Shown: piece by piece, positions 12,001-15,000 of the stretch
Layout of the letters: each line of letters starts with the position of its first letter
How positions within the stretch are numbered: position 1 is the stretch's first letter
Virus record (IMG/VR): IMGVR_UViG_2675903658_000006
Length of the DNA stretch: 22,483 nucleotides
Origin: a virus
Taxonomy: Duplodnaviria > Heunggongvirae > Uroviricota > Caudoviricetes
Direction: 5' to 3' (one strand)
Program-made: the position numbers

Positions 12001-15000
12001 AAATTCGGCGTGATCGTCAGCTCCATTGTGCAGCTCCCGTGCTGATGAGATAATAATTTTGTGATGTGGTTTTCATGGATTCCCCCTCACATGGCTGGTG
12101 GCCTCCCCAAAGGCTGCCAGCCCCCTTCCGAATCAACTCACTTAAATTTCGTCGCACGAATAACGTCAATTCCGTTCTCGCTATATCGAAGAGGGTGCTT
12201 ACCGTCCCTGAGCAGGACAAAACCTGACATCCCCTCAGGTAGCTGAGCCAGCTTCATCAATGAACGGTTGCGGAGAGACTTCTTATCGACCTCAATGGCA
12301 CACTGCTGGCCGTCTGATGATGTAACCAGGCAACCAATAAACCCTTTACGACCACCGCTGATGCTGATGCTGATGCTGAAATTGCGTTGCAGGTGGTATC
12401 CCTGAGACTTGATTTTTTTCTGCATCACATAATCGAAAACAACTTTGTCATCGGAGCGAATGAATTGCTCTTCCAGAAGAGCGATTAAATTTTGCTTCAG
12501 GTCTTCACTCATACTTTTTATCCATCTTGTACTAGCTTTCTGGTACAGCCGTTTTTTCAGGGGTATCCCCCTTTAGATCGAGATCTACCTAACCTATGTA
12601 CCCGTCTGTTGGAAAAGCCTGTTCCAGTGCTTCGCACTAACACACGGGCACTCCTCCCCCTCCCCTCCTCTCGTTGAATTTTCTACGTACCCTTTAACTA
12701 GTACAAAAATGCAATGAGATTTGGGATTCAGCCACCGGACACCTTTAAGCCCGGTACCAATCAGGAGCGCGATTGCGTTCCTGCCAGGGGCGGCTGAGTT
12801 GTATACCCCTGTAAAGCTCTGCCCTGATTTCTCACAAACAAGCGGAGCCTTGTGTTTGCTTCGTGCCTTGCTCTGTTCTCCTTGCGGAATGAAACAGGCT
12901 CAGCGTCAAAAGTGATTTCGTATACCTCCGCATATTTCAGGGCGACCTTCCGTCTCAGTGACGGAGGCAGCCCCTGTAACTGCTGCTGAATCCACTCTTC
13001 GTCTGCCTGGCAGTACCTAGATGGCATCTCTGTCTGAACGTAATTCTGGGACATACAAGCCCTTCACCTCTCCCGTGCGCGCTAAGCTTGGATGTGTATA
13101 TGGAATGTTCGGATCCAGATGGCAGAGAATGGCAACATCCTCCGGAACGCCCCGCGTTTTCCACTTTCCAACTCCCTGACTACCACGAGGCCTTCCTTTC
13201 TTTGGGAACCTGCGGCCAATAGCGGCATTGGTCTTAAATTGAGTTTTTAATATTTCATAAAGGGTCATTCTTTAGCCTCACACCGGATACTCTGTTATCC
13301 AAGAATGTTAAACGCGAGAATCCAAAGTATCAAGAAATTCTGTTACTTTAGTATCAGCAGCCATGAAAGGAGAAGAAAAATGAAATCTTTAGGTGAACGC
13401 CTCATCAACGCACGACAAAAAGCTGGGTTAACGCAAGATGCGTTGGCTAAAAAAGCAGGGGTCACCAGAGTTGCAATCAGTAAAGCCGAGCAAGGCCTTA
13501 CAAAAAGTTTCAACGGTGACACCCTTTTTAAAGTCGCAGCTGCACTGCAGTGTTCACCGCAGTGGCTTCAGAACGGAGATGAAAAAGATAAGCATTGGGA
13601 AAATAATGTTAAGAGCTGCCCACAGAGAGACACAGCACACTCTTACCCTGTAATTAACTGGGTTCAGGCAGGATTATTCGCAACTGCTGGTGATGACTAC
13701 AACATGTATGATCAGGATAATTGGAGGCATTCTGTAAAATACGCTGGTGAGAGGGGGTTCTGGCTGGAAGTGCACGGAGACTCAATGACTTCGCCCGTAG
13801 GAATAACATTTCCTGAAGGAATGTCGATCCTTGTCAACCCAGATAAAGAAGTTTTTTCAGGGTGTTACGTCATCGCCAGAAAAAAATCTACCAATGAAGC
13901 AACATTCAAAAAATATATTTCTGAAATGGGAAAGGCGTTTCTAAAGCCCCTTAATCCACAATATCCAATCATAGAAATGGACAATGATTGCGAAATAGTA
14001 GGTGTTGTGGTTGATGCCAGGTGGGATATTTTCTGACCAGACACAAAAAGAAACCAAAGTATCAAAAATCACTTGCCACACCTTGATACCTTAGTTACCA
14101 TGAAGCAAAGTTCGTAACTGAGGTATCATCTCATGATCAATAAAGCTACAACTCTTGACTGTCTCGAAGAACTGAAAAACCTCGGCAGCCTCATTACACT
14201 AATAGCAAAAGCAACACCAGATGCTACGCTCTCTAGCGATATAGAGTCATGCGCAGGACTGGCATGGGATATGACAAATAGCATATCCAGAAAGCTATCG
14301 TCAGCAATGCTTTTACAGAACAAAAATTCTGCAATCAACAACCGTCTTCGCACCCAACGCGAAGACTGCGGCTTAACAACAGCCGAACTCGCCAGACTGC
14401 TCGATCTCGATGAAGAAATTATCATCCAGTGGGAGAGCGGAGAGTACGAACCAACCATCAGCATGCTTATCCCTCTGGCTAATGTTCTTGGCTGTGATCC
14501 AATGTTGTTATTGACTGATGCTTATAAACAAAATCAGGAGGAAGCATAAGATGAAAATGTTCAAAGGCCTCACCAACGAACCGGAAACAGCTTTTCATCA
14601 CATTGCCGTACTGCTTGAAGCGGGGTTAATCATTTCGGCTTCCGGTGATGAAGAATGTGATGAACTTTCGGATGATATCTTTTTACTGGCACAACAATAC
14701 GCCAGAAGCGCATGCGATGCATTTAAGGAGCAAAGAACATGATAACTCCATTAAATATTCTTGAGGAAGTGGCAGCACAAATAAAAGAGAATACATCCAT
14801 GCTTGAATTTATATTTAAGAATTCGCCTGATTCAGGAGAGACAGACGATTATTTATGTTGCCTCATTCGCTCCATGAATAAAACCTGTGAAATGGCTTAC
14901 GCGTATATCGACACACTGCGCAACGAATAAAGAAAACTCAATAAACAATCACCCATAAAAACATAACGGTCTCTGGTCGGGAATTTCCACAACCTGAAAA

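Follow-up and report, generated by a model that had tools for sequence, protein, structure and literature searches.

In IMG/VR record IMGVR_UViG_2675903658_000006, a stretch of 22,483 nucleotides that was analysed at its full length and is called the window here, the gene for a 218-amino-acid cI-type repressor lies between two intergenic regions that each contain three 14-bp dyads. We regard these six dyads, with considerable confidence, as the predicted operators of this repressor. Taken as a whole, this is very probably an immunity region of the phiP27 type, belonging to a lambdoid prophage of E. coli and organised as an ordinary lambda-type switch. A sequence-only reading of this DNA had drawn attention to GTATC/GATAC pentamers and a repeated 12-mer on both sides of the gene, and had likened the arrangement to oR - cI - oL of lambda. 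That likeness is supported computationally by the type of the repressor, by promoters that are overlapped by operators, by gene order, conservation and covariation, and by the swap of the module in a related phage.

The presence of three pentamers in each of the flanking regions, as had been claimed, is confirmed (13286-13355 and 14059-14127):

13269-13379, 111-bp region on the 5' side of the repressor gene: three pentamers, at 13286 (minus strand), 13327 (plus) and 13351 (plus)
14037-14132, 96-bp region on the 3' side of the repressor gene: three pentamers, at 14059 (plus strand), 14085 (minus) and 14123 (plus)

With the remainder of the window as background rate, about 0.2 pentamers would be expected per intergenic region. 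The Poisson probability of finding three is 1.1e-3 for 13269-13379 and 7.5e-4 for 14037-14132, and for the six jointly in 207 bp it is 2.7e-6; across the 22.5-kb window, these are the sole two regions with at least three pentamers per 110 bp. The 12-mer CCAAAGTATCAA is found exactly at 13322-13333 and at 14054-14065, with no further copy in the window, and a shared word of at least 12 letters between the two regions arose in just one of 3000 dinucleotide-preserving shuffles (p ~3e-4). The earlier statement that these counts are far above chance is thus borne out.

Repeat analysis places the pentamers, in one register, as halves of six 14-bp pseudo-palindromes with the consensus GATAC-N4-GTATC, i.e. 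GATACNNNNGTATC. In every site, one half is perfect and the other degenerate. A T is mostly found 5' of GATAC, so that the full site may be longer than 14 bp; the operator is probably 16 bp, TGATAC-N4-GTATCA. When the window was scanned with GATACNNNNGTATC, a consensus built in part from these same sites, all six were recovered within two mismatches. At one mismatch or fewer there are three matches in the window, all of them in these regions; at two or fewer there are 12, six of them in these regions, the calculated chance expectation at this threshold being about nine for the window and about 0.09 for these 207 bp. The six other matches are scattered and none is credible as a further operator elsewhere in the prophage. 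Chance, or the composition of AT-rich intergenic DNA, might be invoked to explain both the pentamer clusters and the 12-mer, and the scattered matches fit such an explanation, as does the window-wide over-representation of the pentamer (46 copies of GTATC/GATAC vs a mean of 31 in dinucleotide shuffles). We nonetheless consider it effectively refuted, given the two isolated clusters and the rarity of a shared word of this length in shuffled sequence, together with two results from relatives that are described below: strong half-sites that are almost invariant amid drifting neighbour bases, and an oR spacing that is identical across seven lineages.

Following the lambda convention, sites f, a and e were named OR1, OR2 and OR3, and sites d, c and b OL1, OL2 and OL3. 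The predicted elements and the genes that frame them are, in order along the window:

13017-13268, minus strand: gene in the cro position, 83 amino acids, first gene of the rightward early operon, here on the minus strand, divergent from the repressor gene
13286-13299: predicted OR1 (site f), GATACTCTGTTATC, one mismatch to GATACNNNNGTATC, at about +1 to +13 of pR
13333..13305, minus strand: predicted promoter pR, -35 TTGATA at 13333..13328, 17-bp spacer, -10 TAACAT at 13310..13305, facing the cro-like gene
13318-13331: predicted OR2 (site a), GAATCCAAAGTATC, over the -35 and part of the spacer of pR
13342-13355: predicted OR3 (site e), GTTACTTTAGTATC, upstream of pR at about -57 to -44
13380-14036, plus strand: repressor gene, 218 amino acids, with an AAAGGAG ribosome-binding site and the start annotated in phiP27
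14050-14063: predicted OL3 (site b), GAAACCAAAGTATC, upstream of the pL -35 at about -58 to -45
14073-14101, plus strand: predicted promoter pL, -35 TTGCCA at 14073-14078, 17-bp spacer, -10 TACCAT at 14096-14101, facing the gene for a 138-amino-acid protein
14085-14098: predicted OL2 (site c), GATACCTTAGTTAC, spanning the spacer and -10 of pL
14114-14127: predicted OL1 (site d), GTAACTGAGGTATC, at about +7 to +20 of pL, including the GAGG ribosome-binding site of the first pL gene
14133-14549, plus strand: first pL gene, 138 amino acids with a C-terminal helix-turn-helix (HTH), starting 96 bp past the repressor stop

Start-to-start, the operators are spaced by 32 and 24 bp in oR and by 35 and 29 bp in oL. 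The shared 12-mer is no separate element; it is the likeness of OR2 and OL3 plus two flanking A's, its copy at 13322-13333 lying mostly within OR2 and its copy at 14054-14065 mostly within OL3. The reverse complement of the oR copy begins with the -35 hexamer of pR.

Promoters were sought with a sigma-70 consensus scan and then a weight-matrix scan. In the latter, pR and pL are by far the best-scoring candidates on their own strands, and both recur in every relative examined. The -10 of pR reads TAATAT in the Stx2 (Shiga toxin 2) phage Stx2_12E129 (L002), and the promoter has the form TTGATA-18-TACATT in L105, a viral contig whose repressor is 87% identical to that of the window. Likewise, pL is conserved in phiP27, in the Stx phages and in L105 (there TTGCCC-17-TACCAT), and equivalent promoters occupy its position in four more distant lineages (L121, L124, L004 and L127). 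OR1 and OR2 overlap pR. Past the repressor gene, each of the seven lineages examined has an operator lying across the -10 of the downstream promoter. Transcription from pL would be expected to start near 14108. The proposal that pL follows the repressor gene directly, without any rex-like genes, also gains computational support: the 96-bp gap between the repressor stop and the next same-strand gene holds no open reading frame (ORF), leaving no space for such genes, and is filled by the conserved promoter and operators. Two other elements were rejected on inspection. Were the 12-mer the -35 of a leftward promoter in oL, GTCTGG would stand at the -10 position, and a possible LexA box in oR, CTG-N12-CAG, has the wrong spacing.

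The repressor itself is, as judged from its sequence, of genuine lambda-CI type, with the HTH and S24 self-cleaving architecture. Its Pfam domains are HTH_3 (1e-14) and Peptidase_S24 (1e-22), and its C-terminal domain matches the lambda repressor structure 3bdn with E = 2e-33. The segments VQAG, GDSMT and FKKY align with VQAG, GNSMT and FKKL of lambda, which hold the cleavage site, the serine and the lysine, respectively. The N-terminal domain matches the structures of P22 C2 and of 434 Cro and 434 repressor (E ~1e-9 to 1e-4), and its recognition helix is TRVAISKAEQG. A mechanical ORF list had started the gene at an upstream in-frame ATG, 13305; we preferred the ATG at 13380, which is preceded by AAAGGAG. 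With this start, the intergenic boundaries given in the sequence-only reading (13269-13379 and 14037-14132) are correct.

The immunity type is not confined to this window. Its DNA is 100% identical to that of a prophage in E. coli Combat2C1, 95% identical to the Stx2e phage phiP27 (NC_003356, genes L12-L11-L10, of which L11 encodes 218 amino acids) and 85% identical to Stx1a/Stx2a phages of the LC5678xx series; the genes, the six sites and the promoters are all shared by phiP27 and the Stx1a/Stx2a phages. Of 5426 complete E. coli genomes, 195 (~3.6%) carry this type. Selective constraint was assessed in 24 unique oR variants and 28 unique oL variants that stand beside repressors at least 85% identical to that of the window. 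Here, two of the 30 columns of the strong half-sites are variable, as are 10 of the 30 columns of the weak half-sites, vs 76 of the 106 other intergenic columns (Fisher p = 7e-11 and p = 2e-4, respectively). The segment AAAGTATCAAG of OR2 is invariant in all oR variants and AGTATC of OL3 in all oL variants; OL2 is nearly invariant in relatives, and the position of OR1 is conserved in seven lineages. Two of the degenerate sites are found as perfect dyads in relatives: OR1 reads GATACTTAAGTATC in Stx2_12E129, and OL3 reads GATACTTTAGTATC in L105, where the intergenic DNA around the site has diverged strongly.

Homologues of the cro-like protein and of the repressor led us to four lineages that are diverged further:

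L121, Klebsiella group: repressor 63% identical, recognition helix TRVAISKAELG, GTATC sites kept at the same positions
L124, Photorhabdus: repressor 58% identical, recognition helix TRVAISKAEQG, GTATC sites kept at the same positions
L004, Serratia: repressor 51% identical, recognition helix SRMAISKIEMG, sites TAAAC-N4-GTTTA
L127, Providencia: repressor 43% identical, recognition helix SRVTISKIELG, sites GAAAC-N4-GTTTC

The Klebsiella-group lineage carries a site identical to OR2 and apparently has only two oL sites. The oR start-to-start spacings of 32 and 24 bp are the same in all seven lineages. Such a scaffold, fixed in its layout while the half-site changes with the recognition helix, would be expected of sites that the repressor reads. 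As a control of the method, P22-like repressors in the same set of loci (L108-L115) were flanked by P22-type operators, ATTTAAG...CTTAAAT. In the Serratia lineage, the position of site a reads TAATCCAAAGTGGC, a poor match to the TAAAC-N4-GTTTA consensus of that lineage. A similar word, AAAGTGGCA, occurs there both in oR (1939-1952, at the OR2 position and the pR -35) and in oL (2797-2810), a pair that parallels the shared 12-mer of the window.

A natural exchange points in the same direction. Phage phi467 (L120) matches the window at 98.5% identity as far as 13066 and again, at 95.6% identity, from 14349 on, and between these breakpoints it has an unrelated HTH and S24 repressor and a different cro, which delimits an exchangeable immunity module of ~13067-14348. 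The module of phi467 has no GTATC/GATAC; ATCAAGT-type repeats are present in both of its intergenic regions. The exchanged segment takes in the N-terminal 72 codons of the 138-amino-acid gene, the C-terminal HTH being almost unchanged in phi467; the variable N-terminal half of the protein may be immunity-specific, or the junction may merely lie in a conserved part.

These comparisons also bear on the question of which protein reads the dyads. The 83-amino-acid cro-like protein and the 138-amino-acid protein have, or are predicted to have, HTH folds. Moreover, Cro shares its operators with the repressor in lambdoid switches, so that binding of the cro-like protein would be expected besides that of the repressor. 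It could then be argued that one of these two proteins is the main reader of the GTATC dyads and that the repressor recognises something else. We think this very improbable. The C-terminal HTH of the 138-amino-acid protein is shared almost identically with phi467, which is devoid of GTATC sites, and its specificity is hence not tied to them. The putative recognition region of the cro-like protein is nearly the same across the half-site types, whereas the helix of the repressor changes in step with them. Finally, the repeat analysis of the two intergenic regions turned up no further repeated dyad as a possible site for the repressor.

How such a switch would operate can be sketched along the lines of lambda. 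Dimers of the 218-amino-acid repressor would bind the six 14-bp pseudo-palindromes. At OR1 and OR2 they would block pR and with it the divergent operon of cro-like, replication and lysis genes, and at OL1-OL3 they would block pL and the same-strand early-left operon that ends in the integrase gene. OR3, lying over weak candidates for the promoter of the repressor gene, probably limits repressor synthesis, an autoregulation that we propose by analogy with lambda. Upon DNA damage, RecA-stimulated self-cleavage at Ala-Gly would relieve the repression. We infer physical binding, order of occupancy, cooperativity, activation of the repressor promoter pRM and transcription start sites from this analogy, as we do looping between oR and oL over ~730 bp.

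Several observations weigh against this account. The six sites themselves contributed to the consensus, which makes the mismatch scan of the window less than fully independent evidence; the relatives are independent. Spacings of 32/24 and 35/29 bp, vs 23-24 bp in lambda, mean that pairwise cooperativity of the lambda style cannot simply be assumed. The promoter pRM was not confidently located, the weight-matrix scan returning low-scoring candidates only: TCCAAA-17-TACTTT with its -10 at 13344-13349, and GTATCA-16-TAGTAT with its -10 at 13349-13354, both overlapping OR3. Their -10 elements are poorly conserved in the Stx-phage relatives. Weak candidates would fit a pRM that depends on an activator, but do not in themselves argue for one. 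The putative recognition region of the cro-like protein, PRSSQGVGKW, is near-constant across the GTATC, GTTTA and GTTTC lineages and does not covary with the half-sites. This protein may thus not share the operators of the repressor in the classical way; perhaps it reads the dyads, or just their inner part. The literature searched, in which the phiP27 genome paper was not covered, yielded no binding or transcript data for this immunity type. Lastly, no intrinsic terminator that would keep repressor transcription out of the pL operon was found between the repressor gene and pL, either in the E. coli lineage or in L105. On a separate note, oR contains another conserved element, ACTTTGGATT, which is an alternative candidate target for the cro-like protein.

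The lack of a terminator within 14036-14133 invites another reading of the downstream sites. The repressor gene and the 138-amino-acid HTH gene are on the same strand, 96 bp apart, and could form one lysogenic operon transcribed from pRM, resembling cI-rexAB of lambda; the sites between them would then be a roadblock, an attenuator or an anchor for looping. The strong hairpin that OL2 and OL1 would form in any read-through RNA suits this idea. It has to contend, however, with the promoter TTGCCA-17-TACCAT, which is kept in every relative, including those with 43-63% repressor identity, always with an operator across its -10. Furthermore, in L121, L124, L004 and L127 the repressor gene is followed by a clear intrinsic terminator, ahead of the same promoter and operators, and the downstream genes there cannot belong to the repressor transcript. 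The content of the downstream operon, with an integrase, an anti-repressor homologue and a RusA-like resolvase, is also typical of an early-left operon and not of lysogenic cargo. A single lysogenic operon is therefore, in our judgement, improbable, and we keep to pL as a promoter of its own under repressor control.

The hairpin deserves attention in its own right:

14084-14128, plus strand: OL2/OL1 inverted repeat, 15-nt arms and 15-nt loop

As RNA, it would form 15 bp with a folding energy of -21.6 kcal/mol in the window (z = -6) and -17.8 kcal/mol in L105, and it includes the ribosome-binding site of the gene at 14133. The equivalents in L121 and L124, which bear a terminator, have no such hairpin (-3.8 and -9.4 kcal/mol). 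The predicted pL start (~14108) falls inside the loop, so that the hairpin would be present just in transcripts begun upstream of pL; RNA from the predicted start is almost unstructured (-3.9 kcal/mol). The pattern of hairpins and terminators, which is correlative, suggests insulation of read-through transcripts. In read-through RNA from the repressor gene, the hairpin would bury the ribosome-binding site of the first pL gene, and such RNA, being untranslated, could be ended by Rho, whereas RNA started at pL would be without the 5' arm and would be translatable. OL2/OL1 may in this way double as an RNA device, being at once operator, promoter surroundings and a translational insulator specific to the origin of the transcript, an idea that we put forward tentatively and consider rather unlikely. 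On inspection, the natural hairpin variants (L089, L096 and L105) all pair via G-U with zero double compensatory changes, which leaves a covariation test powerless, and a search of Rfam returned no known RNA family in the immunity region.

The wider neighbourhood accords with the gene order of a lambdoid prophage. On the repressor strand, the operon runs via the anti-repressor homologue and the RusA-like resolvase to the integrase (20664-21977, plus strand); on the minus strand, the pR side, are helicase, primase and lysis genes. The 83-amino-acid cro-like protein and a 97-amino-acid protein have no meaningful match in Pfam or NCBIfam, and in PHROGs they match families of unknown function only. 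The cro-like family comprises 44 clusters, from Enterobacterales only, and its predicted fold is closest to Cro of N15, P22 and Xfaso1, of the all-alpha type. The gene for the 97-amino-acid protein (12761-13054, minus strand, phrog_852) is in the cII position and shares 38 bp with the end of the cro-like gene, beside which it is also kept in the Serratia relative (1135-1431 of that locus) and in phi467. The 138-amino-acid protein belongs to phrog_4739, with a partial match to phrog_4836, 'CII-like regulator'. The anti-repressor (Ant) homologue inside the putative pL operon is at 17310-18134 (plus strand; phrog_1726, 5e-69), followed by the resolvase at 18131-18700. Further away, an IS3-family insertion sequence (8634-9847, minus strand) contains a transposase ORF (phrog_157) and an upstream overlapping ORF, together with an Rfam match to the ALIL frameshifting pseudoknot (9450-9566, minus strand, 120 bits). 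A 155-amino-acid ORF adjoining the element (9899-10366) matches just the N-terminal part of a primase profile of 667 positions. It may be that the primase gene is interrupted; the prophage could then be defective in replication.

What is new here is the predicted map of operators and promoters for this immunity type; conceptually it adds nothing to the lambda paradigm unless the hairpin is functional. The records of phiP27 and the Stx phages annotate a 'putative lambda repressor', a 'phage repressor protein CI' and hypothetical proteins, with no operator or promoter features. Searches for phiP27 operators, GTATC operators and the exact sites, in which the phiP27 genome paper was not covered, found no paper with these operator sequences. 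The Stx2e phage phiP27 and several Stx1a/Stx2a phages carry this immunity type. With the map, induction and the expression of Shiga toxin can be studied experimentally in these phages, and superinfection immunity groups can be predicted from sequence alone. In addition, the natural pairs of recognition helix and half-site (GTATC, GTTTA and GTTTC on an identical scaffold) would be useful for work on HTH specificity or for orthogonal synthetic switches.

In comparison with known systems, the resemblance to lambda is extensive: a CI-type repressor with an Ala-Gly cleavage site and a Ser/Lys dyad, a divergent gene in the cro position, three predicted dyads of oR over pR and three of oL over pL, pL on the repressor strand directed towards the integrase, and replication and lysis genes on the pR side. 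Among the features of a lambdoid switch, we find an HTH and S24 repressor, putative oR sites with pR, a second predicted operator set at pL and an exchangeable module, with pRM unlocated. There are also differences. The operators are 14 bp and not 17 bp as in lambda, and their spacings depart from the 23-24 bp of that phage; the N-terminal domain of the repressor is of the P22 C2 / 434 type; rexAB and a terminator between the repressor gene and pL are missing. The first pL gene encodes an HTH protein instead of N, and an N-type antiterminator as first pL gene is not universal among lambdoid phages. The cro-like protein is predicted to have the all-alpha Cro fold (P22/N15 type), whereas lambda Cro has a mixed fold, and the repressor gene has a Shine-Dalgarno sequence, whereas the lambda pRM transcript is leaderless. 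With 434 and P22, the repressor shares the structure of its N-terminal domain. The operators of 434 are 14 bp as well, with conserved outer bases and a central region that is not contacted. The half-site, the recognition helix TRVAISKAEQG, the 4-bp central spacer and the operator spacing all set the present system apart from 434 and P22. From phiP27 and the Stx phages it differs in the backbone outside 13067-14348, which varies among these phages. Finally, 933W and H-19B are lambdoid Stx-phage switches with different repressors and operator sequences. Two oL sites are given for 933W and four oR sites for H-19B (Tyler et al. 2004; Shi & Friedman 2001, cited in PMC8065619), compared with three and three here. 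Departures from the three and three of lambda are, as these counts show, normal variation among lambdoid switches.

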